64,000 nucleotides of DNA, taken from the NCBI GenBank assembly GCA_963677485.1, contig OY781964.1:4192001-4256000 (forward strand), written 5' to 3'. The DNA comes from Armatimonadota bacterium (GTDB taxonomy: Bacteria > Armatimonadota > HRBIN16). This document shows positions 47,089 through 54,364 of the stretch, piece by piece (positions within the stretch are counted from its first letter, which is position 1; each line of letters begins with the position of its first letter). The notes beneath the pieces are model-generated. The model did not search any database. It was not told where the DNA came from and saw nothing but the letters and a program-made list of their open reading frames with translations. A program made the position numbers and the translations under genes.

Positions 47089-49848
47089 ATGAACCTCAAA
47101 AAAAGTATCCGATTTGTATTACTACTCCTCGTAGTGATATGCAGCGTTAAGGTCGATGCACAATTCAAGCCGATTCGGGCGGATCTGCCCACTCCTAATA
47201 GTCGAATCTCCCTCCCCTTCTTTGGTGTTCGACATAATGATGCCCATGGAACTATCGGATCGCTCACTGCCCAAGCCACCGATGCATCACAGCCGCCAGT
47301 CATTGACTACTTCGCACCCCTCGGCGGGTGGGCCTATGATACAGTGAGTATCTACGGGGCAAACTTCACAGGTGTGACCGAGGTATATATTGCCAATTTC
47401 TACGCCGAATTTACGGTAGAGAACGACAATTTGATCAGTGCCTTGGTGCCCGAATACAGGGATGGGACAGGCCCTGTATCAGTGACTGGTCCTGGTGGCA
47501 CCGCGTACAGCACAGAGAATTTCACGATCTACACCTACGGGCCTATCATGACGACCACCATCGATTCATTTGAACCTGTCAGTGGACGGGTGGGCGACAC
47601 GGTCGACATCTATGGTATGGACATCACCGGTGTCAAGAATGTGGCGTTCAACAGAATGCCCGCACAGATAGTCGGATCTGAATATGGACACATTACGGCA
47701 GTAGTGCCGAAAGGAGCGACCACAGGCAAAATATCGATCGATGCCATGTACGGGCCGGCGACAAGCGAGGATGATTTTGTTGTAATTCCATCCACTCCGC
47801 CAGTTGGAGCCATCGAGATATGGGGAGGAAGTAAGCTTACACCGGGAGAGCCAAACGGGTTCACCTACATCTCAGCTGATGATCTCAGTACGATAGGTAT
47901 AGAGCGGGACGGTTCCATTGTAGGCTGGGGATCAAACTATGTTGGAATGCTCATGACTCCGTTACCGAACTCCGATTTTAGGATGGTGGCCTCAGGATGT
48001 GCGCACACTGTTGGATTGAAGAAAAATGGTAGCGTTGTATGTTGGGGCAACAACACAAGCGGACTACGCAATATCTCTGCACCAAACAAGGATTTTATAT
48101 CGATAGATGCAGGAGCGTATCATAATGCCGGTCTGAAGGCTGATGGAACCATAGTCTGTTGGGGTGGTAATGAAAATCAGCAATGTAACGTACCGTCACC
48201 AAATGCAGACTTTACGGCGGTGTCCGCTGGTTATAGTCATACAGTTGCATTAAGGAAAGATGGGTCGGTGGTATGCTGGGGTAGTAACAGCATGGGACAA
48301 TGCAGTGTGCCTTCTCCAAATGCCGATTTCGTGGCTGTATCTGCTGGCTTAAGTTATACTGTAGCTCTCAGAAAGGATGGGTCCATCACAGGTTGGGGTA
48401 ATAACGCATATGGGCAGTGTTCACCACCAGAACCGAATGTGGGATTCGTTGCGGTCTCAGCCGGGTATTATCACACAGTGGCACTTAGGGGAGATGGTTC
48501 GGTGGTTGTATTTGGTAACAATACGTACGGTCAGTGTGATATACCCAAACCAGATGGTATATACATAGCGATCTCCGCTGGTAGTGTTCATTCGGTGGCT
48601 TTAGGTAAAGACGGATCGGTGCAGTGCTGGGGGGGCAATGACAATAACCAATGTGGAGTCACACCGAATGATGACTTTACCTTAGTCAAATCGCGCGATC
48701 ATGTTACATTTGGGTTAAAAAATGACACCATTGTTTGCTTCGGAAGCAATTTAGGCAATCGAATTCATGTTCCCGAACCTAACCAAGGGTTTGTCGAAAT
48801 AGGTGTCGGGCAAGGTCACGCCGTAGGCCTGAGAAATGACGGATCAGTTGTGTGTTGGGGCGATAATTCTTTGGGTCAGTTGGATATTCCTCTACCCAAC
48901 CAGGATTTTGTGGCTATTGCCGTAGGAGCGCAGCACACACTAGCAGTGAAAAGGGACGGCACGGTTGCTGGCTGGGGTTGGAATGAATATAACCAATGCG
49001 ACATACCAGAGCCAAACCGCGCTTTTGTCGCGGTGGCCGCTGGCGATGCGCATTCGATAGGCTTGAAGGAGGACGGATCTTTAGCTCAATGGGGATATGC
49101 GTATTATTGTCAACAATATCCACTACCATCCCCAAACAGCGGCTATGTGGCCATCGCGGCAGGTGACTACCACTCGGTCGGATTGAAAAACGACGGATCG
49201 ATTGTTTGTTGGGGCTGGAACGGATTAGGCCAATGTAACGTGCCTGAACCAAATCAGGACTACATAGCTGTTGCGGCTGGCTATTCACATACTATGGGTC
49301 TCAAATGTAATGGATCGATCGTCTGTTGGGGAAGTAACAACGAAGGCCAGTGCAATATTCCTCTCCCTAACAGTGGCTTTACAGCTATAGCAGCAGGATA
49401 CAACATTTCACTGGCTATACGCAGTCTATATTCGATATCTGGGAATTTGCATCTGGACGGATATTACGGTAATCAGCTACCGGTGGAGCTGTCGGCTACC
49501 ATCAACACTACTGGGTATCCGGACATCACCCAATGTATGAGCTTGAACTCACGTAATGTCAGCGACTATCAAATCACAACCTATCTGCCGCCCCCATATG
49601 ATGTCCGCATTTTTGGATCCCATTTTCTACCCATCAAGGCGGCAAATGTTGCCGGCGGGAATATCCCCAACTTCTCCCTCGTCAACGGCGACGCCGATGG
49701 CGATGGGCAGATCAACCTGTTCGACTTCGTGGTGCTTGACTCCAACTTCGGCAAGTCGACCCCCATGGCAGACCTGAACGGAGATGGGCAGGTGAACCTG
49801 TTTGACTATGTGGTCATCGACCAGAACTTCGGAGCCAGGGGAGATTGA
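47089..49848 (+). CDS. Secreted IPT/TIG + RCC1-repeat protein with dockerin-like tail (copy 2)
   Basis: Two IPT/TIG-like modules (P.IDYFAP..G, IDSFEP.SG.VG..V.I.G, VPKGATTGKI), RCC1 repeats, same tail as copy 1. Confidence 0.88.
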   Translation: MNLKKSIRFVLLLLVVICSVKVDAQFKPIRADLPTPNSRISLPFFGVRHNDAHGTIGSLTAQATDASQPPVIDYFAPLGGWAYDTVSIYGANFTGVTEVYIANFYAEFTVENDNLISALVPEYRDGTGPVSVTGPGGTAYSTENFTIYTYGPIMTTTIDSFEPVSGRVGDTVDIYGMDITGVKNVAFNRMPAQIVGSEYGHITAVVPKGATTGKISIDAMYGPATSEDDFVVIPSTPPVGAIEIWGGSKLTPGEPNGFTYISADDLSTIGIERDGSIVGWGSNYVGMLMTPLPNSDFRMVASGCAHTVGLKKNGSVVCWGNNTSGLRNISAPNKDFISIDAGAYHNAGLKADGTIVCWGGNENQQCNVPSPNADFTAVSAGYSHTVALRKDGSVVCWGSNSMGQCSVPSPNADFVAVSAGLSYTVALRKDGSITGWGNNAYGQCSPPEPNVGFVAVSAGYYHTVALRGDGSVVVFGNNTYGQCDIPKPDGIYIAISAGSVHSVALGKDGSVQCWGGNDNNQCGVTPNDDFTLVKSRDHVTFGLKNDTIVCFGSNLGNRIHVPEPNQGFVEIGVGQGHAVGLRNDGSVVCWGDNSLGQLDIPLPNQDFVAIAVGAQHTLAVKRDGTVAGWGWNEYNQCDIPEPNRAFVAVAAGDAHSIGLKEDGSLAQWGYAYYCQQYPLPSPNSGYVAIAAGDYHSVGLKNDGSIVCWGWNGLGQCNVPEPNQDYIAVAAGYSHTMGLKCNGSIVCWGSNNEGQCNIPLPNSGFTAIAAGYNISLAIRSLYSISGNLHLDGYYGNQLPVELSATINTTGYPDITQCMSLNSRNVSDYQITTYLPPPYDVRIFGSHFLPIKAANVAGGNIPNFSLVNGDADGDGQINLFDFVVLDSNFGKSTPMADLNGDGQVNLFDYVVIDQNFGARGD

Positions 49849-49859
49849 ACCCAACATCG

Positions 49860-50284
49860 CACCCGTCTATCAAATATACATAACATGTCGAAACGTTTGG
49901 TATTTTGCGGTTCTGCTCTCGGTTAGTACCCTGTGCCGTCATGTTCAAAGATGGGCAACTGGAACCATCGATTCCTTGGGGGGTGATGCGCCTGGCTCCA
50001 GGTGTCCGGTCAGAATATGTTCCATAGCTGCCCGCGGCAGCCAAATAATTGGTCTTTAATAGGATGTTTCCATAGTCTGCTGGGGTGACAATAAATACGG
50101 TCAGCTCGATGTGCCTGTTCCTAACAGCGGATTTTTGGTTATTGATGCCGATCAAACATATCATGCGGACTGAGAGCAGTTGGATCCGTTGTGTGTTGGA
50201 GCGATAGACTTGATAGACAGTGCGATGTTCCCACACCAAATCCAGATTACCTGTTTTTGGGCCCTGCACTCTACCACATATTAG
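49860..50284 (+). pseudogene. Decayed RCC1-repeat gene, left fragment
   Basis: Remnants ATGTIDSLG, SIVCWGDNKYGQLDVPVPNSGF and QCDVPTPNPDY...YHIL with stops and frameshifts; left boundary approximate. Confidence 0.8.
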
Positions 50285-51940
50285 TATCTTACCAACCATA
50301 TTTTGAACACGGTGTATAGAATATTCTGATATTACGCACCACACAAAGCGTTAGGCACAACGATCTGGCGAATAGCAAGTGCTGCCATGATGATACGCTT
50401 GCCAAGTGCAGTGAGGTAGTATTTGTAGCGTTTACCGCATTTTTTAACGAGCCGGAATACTCGGCATCGCTTGATGAAGTATGATATCTGAGAGCTGGAC
50501 ATCTGCGGTAAGGCTTTTTGAAGCATACGGTTTGTGATCCCGCTGATGCATCCCTCTCCGCGAGCAAGTGCAATGAGACATTCCAAATCCTTCTTGAGGA
50601 AAAGGTTGAATCCTCGATACGAGCGATGATCACGGGTGGTCGAGGTCGCGATTTTGATGATCTGATGTTCACCATCGCTGTTGTCATCAAGGGCGGAAAG
50701 AAAGTCAAGATATCTGTTGTTTGCAGATAATAACAGTTCCCTCAATGGAGGAAGGCTGTAGATGGTCTTTTGCATAGGGGCGTATTTAATCTCAGTCGTC
50801 CCATCATGATGTTCTACCTCACGGTAGTGTTTAAATTCAGAGACGTCATTCACAGTCGTCTCGATACGCAAGATTATCCCTTGCTTGTCATACATTTTGA
50901 TAGAAGCCCATCCCATGTAGTGTTTGATGCGCGTGCCTTGTATGCGGCGATCGAACTTGTAGTCAGTGCCGATCTCAGCGAGTGTTCGCCCATCAAGTTT
51001 CTTACCAAGAAACATCGCGATAGACTCTGGCGTTACCGTATGTATCGCTGTTTTGACTAGATTATCGTAGATGGCTTTGAGGTCTTCGGCGCGTTTGAAC
51101 ACGATGTCTGTAGCATATTCCACCTGCATTAGCGACCAATGATATGAATTGTCAGCAAGCCGTATCACGGGGCAATACATTCTGGCAAATGCATCCAGCG
51201 CATGGTGCAGCTTATCAGCAGGAAAAGCGTCTGCCAGCCTCTGAGCACAGCTAAAGTCGTCGATTTTTACAAAGGCGTTGTCCAGTGGAGTGAAAACTAC
51301 TCCCTCGGATTGAAGGCAATGCGCGAGATAATTGTGTCCATTACAATAGAATTGCAGACGGAAGGGCACCCAGGTCGGAACTCGTAGATAGCACAGTCCA
51401 AACTCTGCATCGATGAAATAGAAGTAGTAATGAAGACACTTGGTCTCCTTGATATTCAGCCGGGTTTTGTGGGTAATCTTGTCGTGCCACGGGGTGTATG
51501 CAGGACATTTTTCCAACACTGAGAATATGTGGACGAGACCGGGGTGACACCCTCGACTACTAATGATCTCTTTGATGCGGTCTTCTTTTCGAAATGAAGA
51601 GGCACGGCGTATATACTCAATTTCAATGCTGTTGGTAACGGCAAGGCGTTCCGCATTGGCTTTGATCTCATCTCGTAGAGGTTCGGCAAATTCCTTAGGA
51701 AAGTCAAATAGCCTGATGTTGCGTTGATGAAGATAGATGCCCATTCCGTCGCTATGACACCAGCCTGGGATTGTACCGGTGATAACTATGCGGTCGAAGC
51801 ATGAATATACCCCAGCTATCTGCTTTGCATAGCGTTCTTGAAGTGATGTCATTCTGGGCAACCTCACGAAAGGGTGTTTGAATGTATATTACGTGGCGAA
51901 TGCAATCATTCCTTTTTTGGTTGCGGCTAAGCCGCCTTAG
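50285..51940 (-). mobile_element. 1656-bp single-ORF insertion without terminal inverted repeats, flanked by TTAG
   Basis: TTAG at 50281-50284 and 51937-51940; removing the element restores an in-frame RCC1 repeat (YHIL-GLKCDGSIVHWGN); terminal hairpin GCGGC-TAA-GCCGC. Confidence 0.85.
50332..51852 (-). CDS. Putative transposase/Rep-like protein with C-terminal winged HTH
   Basis: About 506 aa from ATG 51852 (GAGGT SD); QVEYATD, IKMYDK and LRIETT motifs; wHTH-like tail with YKYYLTALG. Confidence 0.75.
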   Translation of the reverse strand: MTSLQERYAKQIAGVYSCFDRIVITGTIPGWCHSDGMGIYLHQRNIRLFDFPKEFAEPLRDEIKANAERLAVTNSIEIEYIRRASSFRKEDRIKEIISSRGCHPGLVHIFSVLEKCPAYTPWHDKITHKTRLNIKETKCLHYYFYFIDAEFGLCYLRVPTWVPFRLQFYCNGHNYLAHCLQSEGVVFTPLDNAFVKIDDFSCAQRLADAFPADKLHHALDAFARMYCPVIRLADNSYHWSLMQVEYATDIVFKRAEDLKAIYDNLVKTAIHTVTPESIAMFLGKKLDGRTLAEIGTDYKFDRRIQGTRIKHYMGWASIKMYDKQGIILRIETTVNDVSEFKHYREVEHHDGTTEIKYAPMQKTIYSLPPLRELLLSANNRYLDFLSALDDNSDGEHQIIKIATSTTRDHRSYRGFNLFLKKDLECLIALARGEGCISGITNRMLQKALPQMSSSQISYFIKRCRVFRLVKKCGKRYKYYLTALGKRIIMAALAIRQIVVPNALCGA

Positions 51941-51985
51941 GACTGAAGTGTGACGGCTCCATCGTCCATTGGGGCAACATTTAAG
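51941..51985 (+). pseudogene. Decayed RCC1-repeat gene, right fragment
   Basis: (G)LKCDGSIVHWGNI-stop directly after the element end. Confidence 0.75.
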
Positions 51986-52003
51986 ACCAGCAGGATGATG
52001 TAT

Positions 52004-52030
52004 CGGAGCGGGTCTAGATAAGCCAGAATG
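52004..52030 (+). repeat. 27-bp direct repeat, copy 2 (upstream of RCC1 gene 3)
   Basis: Identical to 44535-44561. Confidence 0.9.
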
Positions 52031-52225
52031 AGGATTCGTGGGCTCCATATTATGATGTGCTCATGACAGCAATAATGCTTGATTATGCCCACATCGAGTT
52101 CACAGTGCATGATTTCTATTGATATAGCCATCTCCTGTCGGGTACATGTAAGGGCATAAGTGATCAGCGGTGAGGACCAACCAGTGCTAGACAAGTGTGT
52201 GAGCCCTAGATGATGGAGGCATAAC

Positions 52226-54364
52226 ATGAAACACACGATAGCCGTATTCTGTAGAAGCATGGTCAGGTGGGGCATCTGGCTTTTGATGCTGGTTTGCAGT
52301 GTCTATAGCTTTGCCCTGACGGGCACAATAGAAGGTTGGGGATCTAATTGCACAGCACCTGGTGATATGAGTGGCTTTATATCAGTTTCAGCAGGTGCCA
52401 TGCACTCCGCAGGGGTAAAACACGATGGGTCGGTAGTGTGTTGGAGATACAACCACGACCGCCAATGTAATGTGCCAGCACCCAATAGTAACTTCGTGGC
52501 GGTCTCCGCAGGTTTTTACCACACAGTAGGACTGAAGAATGACGGCTCGGTTGTTTGCTGGGGCAGCAACCAGCAGGAGCAGTGCAATGGGCCATCACCT
52601 AACAGCGGGTTCACGGCTGTTTCGACTGGCACCTACTATTCTGCAGGCCTGAAGAGTGACGGCAGCATTGTTTGCTGGGGCAATGCCGCCTATGGTGAGT
52701 GTAGTGTGCCTGCACCCAACAGCGACTTCGTCGCCATTTCTGCAGGTCCCGAGTTCATGGTTGGTCTGAAGCACGACGGCTCCGTGGTCTGCTGGGGAAA
52801 TAACGCAAAAGGCCAATGCAGTGTTCCTTCTCCGAATAGCGGATTTATCGGAATATCGGCAGGAGTCAACCATGCCGCTGGCTTGAAAAGTGATAGCTCG
52901 ATCGTGTGTTGGGGCCTGAACACCGATGGTCAGTGCAGCGTTCCGTCACCGAACAGCAGTTTTATAGCGGTTGCGGCCAGTAAATACCATACATCGGGAT
53001 TGAAGACTGACGGCTCGATCGTGTGTTGGGGCTGGAACGGTGATGGCGGATGCAATGTTCCCGCACCCAACGGCAACTTTACCGCCATATCGGGAGGTGA
53101 CTATCATACGGCAGGACTTAAGCGGGATGGTTCTCTGGTATTCTGGGCATGGAATGACGATGGTCAGTGCAACATGCTTGCACCTAACAGCGGATTTATC
53201 GCCGTTTCGGCAGGATATCATTCTGCCGGGTTGAAACAAGATGGCTCGGTGGTTTGTTGGGGATGGAACACATATGGTCAGTGTGTTGTGCCAGCTCCCA
53301 ACAGCGAGTTCATTGCCCTCTCATCTGGATACGCCCATACAATCGGCTTGAAAAGTGATGGCTCTGTCATCTGTTGGGGCGATAACTCATATGGTCAACG
53401 CCAGGTACCGGCGCCCAACAGCGGGTTTAGCTATATATCTGCAGGAATCAACCATAACGCCGGGGTTAAAACTGACGGATCAGTGGTCTGCTGGGGCTCG
53501 AATTCGTCGTCTCAGTGCTCTGTGCCCTCACCCAACAGCGGATTTATGGCGGTCTCCGCAGGCGACAGCCATACGGTAGGTTTGAAAACTGATGGAACGG
53601 TGGTCTGCTGGGGAGCCAACACGTCAGGGCAGTGTAGCGTACCGGCTCCGAACAGCGGCTTCACAGCGGTTGCAGCGGGGACAAGCCATTCTGCTGGACT
53701 GAAGAACGACGGATCTATTGTCTGCTGGGGATCAAACGCATTCGGTCAATGCACCGTACCAGCTCCTAACAGCGGCTTTACTTCCGTGTCAGCAGGAATT
53801 AGTAATACTGTCGGTTTGAAGAGTGACGGTTCGATCATCTGTTGGGGACTTGATGGGCATGGCCAATGTGCGGTACCGACACCAAACAGCGGATTTGCAG
53901 GTATTTCTGCTGGGGCTTACATTATTGAAGGCATTCGTACTCAGCATTCGGTGTCTGGTGCAGCCCATCTGGGTAACTTCGTGGGCGATGTCACTCATCA
54001 ACAGCTTGTGGCGTCCATCAGCAGCACGGCTAACCCGAGTAACTCGCAGTGCCTGAGCTTTTCGCCACAGATCGACGGAAGTTTTCTGATCAACAGTGCC
54101 ATCAGTCCTCCGTTGCAGGTCTTGATTAGCTGTCAGCATTTCTTGCGGCTCAAAATCCCCAATTTCGATCCATCAAACAGCATGAACTTCACGCTGGTCA
54201 ACGGTGATTCTGATGGTGAAGGACAGATCAACCTGTTCGACTTCGTGGTGCTCGATATGCACTTCGGGTCTTCGGACAGTATGGCAGACCTGGACGGCAA
54301 CGGGCACGTGAATCTGTTCGACTACGTGGTCATCGACAAAAACTTCGGAGCTAAAGCCGACTAA
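52226..54364 (+). CDS. Secreted RCC1-repeat protein with dockerin-like tail (copy 3)
   Basis: Same architecture as copy 1; very regular repeats; GGAGG RBS. Confidence 0.88.
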   Translation: MKHTIAVFCRSMVRWGIWLLMLVCSVYSFALTGTIEGWGSNCTAPGDMSGFISVSAGAMHSAGVKHDGSVVCWRYNHDRQCNVPAPNSNFVAVSAGFYHTVGLKNDGSVVCWGSNQQEQCNGPSPNSGFTAVSTGTYYSAGLKSDGSIVCWGNAAYGECSVPAPNSDFVAISAGPEFMVGLKHDGSVVCWGNNAKGQCSVPSPNSGFIGISAGVNHAAGLKSDSSIVCWGLNTDGQCSVPSPNSSFIAVAASKYHTSGLKTDGSIVCWGWNGDGGCNVPAPNGNFTAISGGDYHTAGLKRDGSLVFWAWNDDGQCNMLAPNSGFIAVSAGYHSAGLKQDGSVVCWGWNTYGQCVVPAPNSEFIALSSGYAHTIGLKSDGSVICWGDNSYGQRQVPAPNSGFSYISAGINHNAGVKTDGSVVCWGSNSSSQCSVPSPNSGFMAVSAGDSHTVGLKTDGTVVCWGANTSGQCSVPAPNSGFTAVAAGTSHSAGLKNDGSIVCWGSNAFGQCTVPAPNSGFTSVSAGISNTVGLKSDGSIICWGLDGHGQCAVPTPNSGFAGISAGAYIIEGIRTQHSVSGAAHLGNFVGDVTHQQLVASISSTANPSNSQCLSFSPQIDGSFLINSAISPPLQVLISCQHFLRLKIPNFDPSNSMNFTLVNGDSDGEGQINLFDFVVLDMHFGSSDSMADLDGNGHVNLFDYVVIDKNFGAKAD

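Follow-up and report, generated by a model that had tools for sequence, protein, structure and literature searches.

A 1656-bp mobile element with IS91-like ends and a transposase probably outside the HUH enzymes in an Armatimonadota genome

The mobile element analyzed in this study lies in a 64,000-nucleotide stretch of an Armatimonadota genome (GenBank assembly GCA_963677485.1, contig OY781964.1, positions 4,192,001 to 4,256,000 of the forward strand); the whole stretch is referred to as the window, and positions are counted from its first letter. The element proper occupies positions 50285..51940 (1656 bp), carries its only gene on the minus strand, and is present in 22 copies in the 5.22-Mb single-contig genome of the host. 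The combined data make it probable that this is an autonomous, recently active insertion sequence (IS) from a large uncatalogued family, in which an IS91-like build is associated with an unrelated, non-HUH transposase. As far as the databases and the literature searched reach, the family is apparently undescribed.

Boundaries, target and conserved ends of the element

The 22 copies were found by a DNA search with a 1660-base query. Over its length, 21 of them are at least 99.9% identical and one is 99.2% identical, and the encoded protein is the same in 21/22. In a side-by-side alignment of the copies, everything from TATCTTACC through CCTTAG is constant, whereas the four bases to the left vary, and thus the element proper starts at 50285, whereas 50281-50284 is target sequence. 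An earlier reading of the window, made from the sequence only, had described a 1656-bp element with exactly definable ends spanning 50281-51940. The length and the end of that span hold, since the copies have common boundaries and empty sites lack exactly 1656 bp; the start has to be shifted, as the first four positions are the flanking TTAG. On the plus strand, the left flank reads ...CTCTACCACATA TTAG (in a longer form, ...TACCACATA TTAG), the element starts with TATCTTACCAACC... and ends with ...GCGGCTAAGCCGCCTTAG (also written ...TTGGTTGCGGCTAAGCCGCCTTAG), and the right flank continues as GACTGAAGTGTGACGGCTCC (in a longer form, GACTGAAG). In the orientation of the gene, the element opens with CTAA and a hairpin with a 5-bp stem and closes with ...GTAAGATA, the insertion being bounded by a flank C on one side and by a flank CTAN on the other (Table 1). 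The best inverted match between the two ends is 6 bp, in agreement with the earlier statement that long terminal inverted repeats are absent. The GC content of the element is 46.4%, versus 54.4% for the genome, and promoter and terminator scans gave nothing better than shuffled sequences.

Table 1. Features of the element and of its insertion site (positions in the window)
Feature	Position	Strand	Evidence
Target tetranucleotide TTAG (CTAA in gene orientation), flank and not element	50281..50284	+	Varies among copies; present once in empty paralogous sites
Mobile element, 1656 bp	50285..51940	-	22 copies with common boundaries; empty site lacks exactly 1656 bp
End downstream of the gene ("ori-like"), adjoining the target word; closes ...GGTTGGTAAGATA in gene orientation	50285..50331	-	
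Putative transposase gene, 506 amino acids and stop (P0001)	50332..51852	-	Sole open reading frame (ORF), fills the element
End upstream of the gene ("ter-like"), CTAA-G-GCGGC-TTA-GCCGC-AACCAAAAAAGG..., within the 88-nt leader	51853..51940	-	
Subterminal hairpin GCGGC-TAA-GCCGC, one base from the terminal TTAG	51923..51935	.	
Terminal TTAG of the element itself (CTAA in gene orientation), target-word mimic	51937..51940	+	Invariant in 22/22
Flank G (C at -1 in gene orientation), required target base	51941..51941	+	G in 22/22 copies
C-terminal MarR-like winged helix-turn-helix (wHTH), about residues 430-495	50368..50565	-	Profile against PDB and Pfam
D20 codon, motif FDRxxxxG; candidate metal ligand, like Rep_trans motif N'	51793..51795	-	Invariant in 66/66; 208/213
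E245-Y-A-T-D249 codons, motif QxEYATD; candidate metal ligand, like Rep_trans motif I (RxDxAxD)	51106..51120	-	
K319-M-Y321-D-K323...L-R329-I-E331 codons; Y321 candidate catalytic Tyr, E331 candidate third acidic residue	50860..50898	-	

Direct evidence of insertion comes from paralogous sites. The oldest copy (G000:C1:824516-826174, the one with 99.2% identity) has flanks that match two other places of the genome with 99.7% identity over 293 bp. Both of these are uninterrupted and read ...GAGT ATAG GTGTTT..., the occupied counterpart being GAGT ATAG [1656 bp ending TTAG] GTGTTT. The same pattern is seen for another copy, which has an 88%-identical paralogous empty site. The genome-wide search for copies and empty sites suggested earlier has yielded 22 copies and two paralogous empty sites; when the flanks of two copies were compared with the congener G204, no clean uninterrupted site was obtained. 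In contigs of public sequencing runs (four runs), the depth of the element is about 20 times that of its flanks (187.6 vs 8.8; 263.8 vs 13.6). One metagenome run, X6, contains a variant of the element with seven substitutions and one deletion, whose left flank is nearly that of the host copy at 2650753; a related strain with a shared insertion thus exists in an environmental sample.

The left target word is TTAG in 17 copies, ATAG in four, and TTAA in one, which gives the consensus W-T-A-G|G (T and A in 22/22, G in 21/22, G at +1 in 22/22). The terminal TTAG of the element is invariant in 22/22 even where the opposite side is ATAG or TTAA (5/22 copies), and the combination of a left ATAG with a right TTAG excludes a 4-bp target duplication. 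On the host genome alone a 3-bp duplication (TAG/CTA) is possible, which would count against a duplication-free insertion. It is excluded by the relatives of the element that start with CCAA or CTAC and have a differing far flank: 11/47 distinct upstream ends begin with CCAA rather than CTAA, the far flank being CTAA or CTAC in the nine of these 11 where it is readable, and in a distant mycobacterial branch the element begins with CTAC and is flanked by CTAG or CTAA. Since the word at the upstream end differs from the far flank in these relatives, it is inherited with the element, and is a mimic of the target and not a duplication of it. The flank following the downstream end is CTAN in all 22 copies and in 42/43 distinct ends of relatives (CTGC in the exception), and the base preceding the element is C in 61/66 distinct insertions of relatives. 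The five exceptions are two tandem junctions with the end of another element, two mis-registered matches, and one decayed end. At locus L034, a microsatellite of target-like words, made up of CTAAGTAC repeats, comes directly after the downstream end of the element, and similar target-like repeats are found at the element flanks in L024 and L067.

Boundaries could be defined independently in a nitrospirotal metagenome-assembled genome (MAG; six copies of 1656 bp), an alphaproteobacterial MAG (11 copies of 1621 bp) and a gammaproteobacterial MAG (two copies of 1641 bp). In the orientation of the gene the common plan is flank-C | C[T/C]AA-N-(5-bp stem, 3-nt loop)-AACCAAACAGG ... gene ... [T/A]AAG[G/A]GA | CTAN-flank, and relatives belonging to at least 15 phyla share this arrangement, their hairpins showing compensatory changes. 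Alignment of 35 relatives gave the upstream consensus C[T/C]AA-N-hairpin-AACCAAACAGG, and members with a longer leader retain this end. In these 35 upstream ends 93% of the hairpin cells pair, with seven compensatory double changes and no one-sided change; none of 500 shuffles reached the covariation score, and slid controls paired in 5-38% of cells. Folded as DNA, the hairpin of the host element has an energy of -5.7 kcal/mol (z = -2.0) on one strand and of -5.9 kcal/mol (z = -2.4) on the other. At the other end, the motif [T/A]AAG[G/A]GA with the flank CTAN is kept in 43 distinct ends of relatives, where the pairing is that of a weak hairpin (65% of cells vs 57% in shuffles); RNAalifold found no consensus structure in the downstream ends, and that of the window copy forms no stable DNA hairpin. 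The same plan is observed in a 22%-identical member on a mycobacterial plasmid, which has two copies at 97% and one deleted copy. Its stem is 11 bp long, and all differences between the copies in one arm are compensated in the other. An IS608-like guide pairing or a junction stem (GGG/CCC), looked for by eye, is not conserved, being absent in the window element and in the alphaproteobacterial and nitrospirotal sets.

In the window, the element interrupts an RCC1 repeat. The left flank translates to ...CDVPTPNPDYLFLGPALYHIL and the right one to LKCDGSIVHWGN, which join in frame as YHIL-G-LKCDGSIVHWGN. The split codon G|GA encodes Gly, so the reconstructed YHILGLKCDGSIVHWGN of the sequence-only reading is correct. 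The interrupted frame has two stops about 40 codons upstream, and the repeat was thus already part of a gene remnant and not of an intact gene. This remnant (49849-52225) lies between two intact RCC1-repeat genes, 47089-49848 and 52226-54364, both with RCC1_2 repeats and a similar C-terminal tail, ...GDxDGDGQINLFDFVVLD..., and one with a TIG domain. Elsewhere in the genome, the right flank of the copy G000:C1:2650753-2652412 (L009:4303-4616) contains two sequences of about 100 bp that match at least 80 places in the closed congener genome G204 with 76-98% identity, many of the matches being adjacent and inverted. They resemble a dispersed repeat of the genus, of the repetitive extragenic palindrome or miniature inverted-repeat transposable element (REP/MITE) type, and are unrelated to the element.

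The encoded protein and its possible kinship with Rep_trans nucleases

The 506-residue product of the element, P0001, matches no Pfam family at E <= 1, has chance-level matches only in NCBIfam and PHROGs, is not matched by any NCBI transposase model, and finds nothing below E = 0.9 among PDB sequences. In a diverse family alignment of 66 members, 28-67% identical to the window protein, the Pfam families HVO_A0261_N, HTH_45, and MarR were matched by 30, 13, and 5 members, respectively. Among the 25 families listed of the 53 matched at E <= 1, only wHTH-type or one-off matches are seen, and none to HUH or Y2 enzymes. The family profile compared with PDB gave the MarR protein 3bj6 (E = 0.013, profile positions 439-501). 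The view that the transposase lies outside the standard families is therefore upheld, the C-terminal winged helix being the only part recognized by Pfam, NCBIfam, PHROGs, or PDB. An internal-repeat test of the protein gave 0.4%.

Relatives appear in databases as "hypothetical protein", "MarR family transcriptional regulator" or "ArsR family transcriptional regulator", the misannotation that had been anticipated from the sequence. These names and the weak wHTH match would fit an ordinary MarR/ArsR-type regulator, with the repeats being duplications of a host gene. This explanation is refuted by the 22 near-identical copies with exact common boundaries in unrelated contexts, by the empty sites, and by the absence of the gene from 30 related genomes, two of the same genus (one of them closed) included, and we give it practically no weight. 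The gene is multi-copy, mobile, and patchily distributed, with phyla intermixed on the tree, and the wHTH covers only the last 70 or so of the 506 residues. Homologues that are single-copy, syntenic, and devoid of conserved ends, named beforehand as an observation that would speak against a transposon, are contradicted by multi-copy sets with conserved ends.

Fifteen columns are invariant in the 66-member alignment and hold up in 270 sequences: D20, R21, G105, Y143, Y145, G152, P163, N171, N192, E245, F252, K319, Y321, R329, and E331. In the larger set, E245 is kept in 252/258 sequences, D249 in 246/257, Y321 in 233/246, K323 in 235/245, R329 in 239/246, and E331 in 232/245. Neither His nor Ser is invariant in the family alignment, and a conserved His pair is lacking. 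This speaks against membership among the HUH enzymes, the serine recombinases, or the classical tyrosine recombinases.

From three motifs of the protein, the sequence-only reading had assigned it to the Rep_trans nickases. According to the parts of PMC5714925 available, Rep_trans proteins have the motifs N' (D), I (RxD), II, III (YxK), and IV (RxE), and combine a D-D-E metal site with a Tyr nucleophile carried on a strand, nicking beside or in a hairpin. The members of Rep_trans (PF02486) considered here are pT181 RepC/RepD, RepSTK1, and NicK/MOB_T relaxases. For profile comparison, 14 sequences were aligned, taken from pT181 RepC relatives and from plasmid and genome loci (a PF02486 search of 201 genomes from another phylum, made to widen the alignment, gave two matches); the invariants of this alignment include R140, D142, A144, D146, Y191, K193, R212, and E214. 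All three motifs proposed earlier are real and contain strongly conserved residues (E245/D249, Y321/K323, R329/E331), and a fourth was added, FD20RxxxxG26, which resembles motif N', (F/I)D46(A/R)xTxxG52. The other look-alikes are QxE245xAxD249 for RxD142xAxD146 (motif I), KMY321DK for RIY191NK (motif III), and LR329IE331 for WR212xE214 (motif IV). Their order is that of the Rep_trans motifs N', I, III, and IV; a counterpart of motif II is not evident.

The similarity was evaluated by a home-made statistic, in which five profile blocks of 8 columns each, without gaps, are chained in the same order and the highest-scoring chain is taken. The block-chain score against Rep_trans is 57.2, compared with 34.0 for the reversed profile, and was reached by 4, 7, 9, and 35 of 1500 order-shuffles with segments of 8, 12, 16, and 24 columns, respectively (p ~0.003-0.02). 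Control pairs gave no signal (44 and 38 of 200 for the family against DUF7845 and for DUF7845 against Rep_trans). The best-scoring blocks match the Y321 and R329-E331 region with RFIRIY191NK and R212VE214 of Rep_trans, and D20 is aligned with FD46AMTIVG of RepC both by the block chain and by hhalign, whose low-stringency alignments pair the look-alike motifs. Another block offers an alternative motif I (FTPLDNAF vs FTRLDLAF).

Several results weigh against the Rep_trans assignment. The PF02486 hidden Markov model (HMM) matches neither P0001 nor any of the 66 members at E <= 1 and finds nothing in the genome at E <= 0.01. In profile-profile comparison by hhalign, the probability was 0.3% when whole profiles were used and 5.3% and 1.1% when the profiles were cut down to core slices. 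The spacing of motifs differs as well (225 residues between N' and I vs 96 in Rep_trans; 8 between III and IV vs 21), and the family has an extra region of about 130 residues. The permutation statistic is weak as well as home-made, one of the five blocks being spurious; its result could be taken as a weak lead, not as a demonstration of kinship. A Rep_trans-like fold of the catalytic part is thus plausible but unproven.

A possible precedent is the archaeal replication protein RepSNJ2 (DUF7845) of haloarchaeal pleolipoviruses. In the accessible text of PMC13107129 (2026) it is described as a TBP-fold relative of Rep_trans that is unrecognizable by sequence, with the key residues E25, D207, Y283, and E303 and a fused MarR-like wHTH thought to read a hairpin origin; the same text states that such wHTH fusions are unknown in bacterial Rep_trans proteins. 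In layout, though without this being proof of kinship, the family resembles these Rep-Arvir proteins: a catalytic domain of about 300-400 residues is followed by a MarR-like wHTH, a DNA hairpin is conserved, the residue spacing is comparable (E25/D207/Y283/E303 there, D20/E245/Y321/E331 here), and the archaeal members are likewise annotated as "MarR family transcriptional regulator". The differences are that Rep-Arvir proteins are archaeal replication initiators of viruses and plasmids with an extra C-terminal domain, and share no sequence similarity with the family (block chain z = 0.8). Comparison with 34 DUF7845 members by hhalign gave 0.3%, and the PF25227 (DUF7845) HMM has no match at E <= 1 in the genome with 22 copies, both of which also speak against the kinship.

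Taken together, among the hypotheses available on the chemistry of the protein, the Rep_trans-like reading is the best one, with the chances for and against it about balanced. Put in its full form, and only tentatively, the family could be an unrecognized class of prokaryotic transposons, in which a TBP-fold, Rep_trans-like tyrosine nuclease is joined to a MarR-like wHTH as a bacterial counterpart of the archaeal Rep-Arvir. These would be the first transposons of the non-HUH branch of rolling-circle endonucleases, performing IS91-like single-strand or rolling-circle transfer at C|CTAN, spread over at least 15 phyla, and spawning mini-elements and tandem arrays. A less probable explanation, which we nevertheless take seriously, keeps the element and its insertion behaviour as described but assumes a fold unrelated to Rep_trans, either new or a divergent RNase-H-like or PD-(D/E)xK one, the motifs being convergent or due to chance. 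Besides the missing HMM and profile-profile signal to Rep_trans and DUF7845 and the differing motif spacing, it is favoured by the roughly 200 residues between the first two motifs, which hold the invariants G105, Y143, Y145, G152, P163, N171, and N192 with no clear Rep_trans counterpart, and by the Atlas neighbours, all of which are unnamed clusters. On the other hand, the D, D/E, Y, and E needed by Rep_trans are all among the 15 invariant columns and in the same order, the DNA anatomy is that of tyrosine-nuclease transposons, and enzymes of DDE type normally duplicate their target and use inverted repeats, both absent here.

Family size, distribution and derivatives

The family is very large. 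A word-indexed search gave at least 7998 homologues at E <= 1e-3 among 8000 candidates scored, and an exhaustive search of representatives at 50% identity gave no fewer than 6547 related clusters with a threshold of E <= 1e-3, and 659 with one of E <= 1e-30. The best 120 homologues are 469-532 amino acids long and 57-77% identical, have no Pfam domain, and are found mostly on contigs of 1.6-2.5 kb. Neighbours of the homologue P0089 in the Atlas are exclusively unnamed clusters of the same family. In a sample of 400 other genomes from the phylum of the host, matches at E <= 1e-15 were obtained in 13, many of them fragmentary. No relative was found in viral contigs by a pattern-based search. The literature searched contains neither a description of the family nor an occurrence of the end motifs, ISfinder and the supplements of papers being outside its coverage.

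In contigs from one genome per species, 252/286 candidate stretches encode a relative. The 80 of these kept for analysis come from Chloroflexota, Nitrospirota, Acidobacteriota, Thermodesulfobacteriota, Pseudomonadota, Planctomycetota, Bacillota, Bacteroidota, Gemmatimonadota, and others. On a FastTree phylogeny of 61 rows (the window and 60 loci, after removal of rows with stops, those shorter than 440 amino acids, and identical duplicates), the 15 phylum labels require 27 changes, the minimum being 14, a count that may be inflated by errors of MAG binning.

Other genomes also contain many copies: seven full ones in G002, and 47 matches in G003, of which 37 are full length. In the latter genome, all 22 full copies of a 1.56-Mb contig lie within about 0.8 Mb (G003:C1:578000-1395000), some only hundreds of bases apart (1229785, 1231640), which suggests local hopping or a plastic region. 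More distant paralogues, with 24-27% identity, were found at G003:C8:58272-59312, G001:C192:1-639, and G003:C1:960780-961355; thus several subfamilies coexist in one host.

Head-to-tail arrangements were identified in the species collection, where the exact pattern of a downstream end, CTAA, and an upstream end occurs in 12 contigs. For instance, a 941-kb contig of a long-read MAG has three family elements head to tail with a period of 1652 (L147:1512-6467). The first two copies differ by one base, and the third belongs to another subfamily (44% vs 48% identity to P0001). Either the word beside a resident element is a favoured target, or the arrays arise by read-through. The contigs with the junction pattern also hold one internally deleted copy. 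Mini-elements of 64, 162, 171, and 242 bp keep the two ends alone, and thus the ends suffice in cis. The host genome has no mini-elements, as the upstream end motif occurs in it exactly 22 times, the number of full copies.

Proposed mechanism and comparison with known transposons

The anatomy of the ends makes an IS91-like mechanism with a tyrosine nuclease likely. The 506-residue protein would bind the hairpin end through its C-terminal winged helix and nick only the strand opposite to that of the gene, at both junctions and directly 3' of (N)TAG. On the antisense strand, the predicted sites are NTAG|T at the downstream end, hairpin-N-TTAG|G at the upstream end, and WTAG|G in the target. The nucleophile would be a tyrosine, for which Y321 is the best candidate, and the metal site could be formed by D20, E245/D249, and E331. 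The nuclease would hold the 5' end on its tyrosine, the donor would be resealed to WTAG|G, and the TTAG-3'OH of the element would be joined to its own 5' end, giving a circle with the junction TTAG|TATC (on the plus strand, a circle or tandem joint would run from ...GCCGCCTTAG to TATCTTACC...). The cut strand would be circularized or rolled off in the manner of IS91 or IS608, and reversal of the reaction would reinsert it 3' of TAG at another TAG|G site. Alternatively, replication starting at the nick may displace the strand, a scheme put forward for IS91; the hairpin and its word would then be the stop signal, and read-through past this signal could produce the tandems. The two ends might be served by one tyrosine in a dimer or by two tyrosines, Y321 with Y143 or Y145. 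More weakly, the catalytic part may be a distant relative of the Rep_trans and Rep-Arvir rolling-circle endonucleases, with their TBP-like fold.

Some points reduce the strength of this scheme. The geometry of a metal triad and a Tyr on a strand (D20, E245, E331, Y321) is a proposal from conserved residues. No circle junction or excision was seen among the assembled contigs of public runs, which are uninformative on both. There is also no clear bias with respect to replication. With the origin at about 2.15 Mb and the terminus at about 4.75 Mb by cumulative GC skew, 15/22 host copies have the strand cut after TAG on the lagging template, and the 22 copies on the G003 contig split 12 to 10 along a stretch where the GC skew is weak and keeps its sign. 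As IS608-type elements are described as biased to the lagging-strand template in the material available on them, this argues against a strict IS608-style coupling to the lagging strand.

The lack of a clear strand bias would also agree with a double-stranded circle that recombines conservatively within a CTA core (junction ..GATA CTAA GG.. with target C CTAN) in the manner of IS110 or IS607, catalyzed by a new recombinase. The absence of duplication, the 3-4-bp word common to target and junction, and heterologous elements joined head to tail at the same word fit such a scheme too. We nevertheless consider it quite improbable. The family has no conserved Ser, no R-K-H-R-H/W-Y set of tyrosine recombinases, and no DEDD match, and the element has no Rfam match and, with a leader of 88 nt and a tail of 47 nt, lacks a long non-coding stretch that could hold a guide RNA. 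Further, cores of the CCAA type mismatch the target at position 2, which is awkward for a crossover that depends on core homology, and a single hairpin beside the word that is cut is a usual feature of nickases with strand specificity.

By their chemistry, the known transposases form only a small number of classes. The class that works by rolling-circle or single-strand transfer has so far consisted of HUH enzymes only, namely IS200/IS605, IS91/ISCR, Helitrons, and Replitrons, as far as the available part of the Replitron preprint goes. The present family is a very large one that probably combines the DNA anatomy of this class with an unrelated enzyme, and reaches 37 full copies per genome. 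If the Rep_trans-like reading is true, it would constitute a new transposase class, and bacterial Rep_trans, archaeal Rep-Arvir, and these transposons would form one enzyme lineage. Given that reading, it would also provide a compact, specific (C|CTAA), and duplication-free insertion system with tiny requirements in cis, since a mini-element of 64 bp exists. Whatever the fold, the MarR/ArsR label should be dropped in annotation, and IS catalogues lack a widespread family.

Among known systems, Rep_trans proteins would share the proposed chemistry, that is, the Tyr nucleophile, the D-D-E metal site, and nicking at hairpins described in the available sections of PMC5714925. In the literature searched they initiate replication or transfer, and none is described as a transposase. 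As for insertion sequences of the DDE type, the element has no match to a family model, no terminal inverted repeats, and no target duplication. The IS110 elements, with a DEDD transposase and a bridge or seeker RNA, are similar, according to the partial descriptions available, in the lack of inverted repeats and duplication, in specific insertion, and in a short core common to donor and target. They differ from the present element, which has neither a DEDD or Transposase_20 match nor the non-coding region and Rfam match considered above.

The TnpA transposase of IS200/IS605 elements is a small HUH protein. These elements (IS608, ISDra2) resemble the window element, within the accessible accounts of them, in insertion 3' of a tetranucleotide on one strand, in the absence of duplication and inverted repeats, and in subterminal hairpins that define the ends. 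However, their TnpA is a Y1 HUH enzyme, whereas here a 506-residue protein without an HUH family match is encoded, and they have hairpins at both ends, whereas only one end clearly has a hairpin here.

The closest similarity is to the IS91 family. In the available portion of PMC13181058, its members IS91, IS801, and IS1294 are described as making no duplication and as having a tetranucleotide target, which adjoins the end lying downstream of the transposase gene. The upstream end has a single subterminal palindrome next to the cleavage tetranucleotide, terminal inverted repeats are absent, and three of the four family members named, IS801 and IS1294 included, have the same word for cleavage and for the target. 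The differences lie in the enzyme and in the word. The window protein lacks the HUH motif, a Y2 family match, and the Zn-binding N-terminus, and has a C-terminal wHTH instead, and the target is CTAN and not GTTC or CTTG. Single- and double-stranded circular intermediates with joined ends and one-ended transposition are features of IS91; in the assembled contigs of public runs, no such joint was seen for the window element. Nonetheless, the element agrees with the IS91 layout point for point, in the absence of duplication, the downstream tetranucleotide target, and the upstream palindrome beside the word, and the earlier suggestion of a rolling-circle-type transposon is thus supported by its DNA anatomy, insofar as it can be judged by analogy with IS91.

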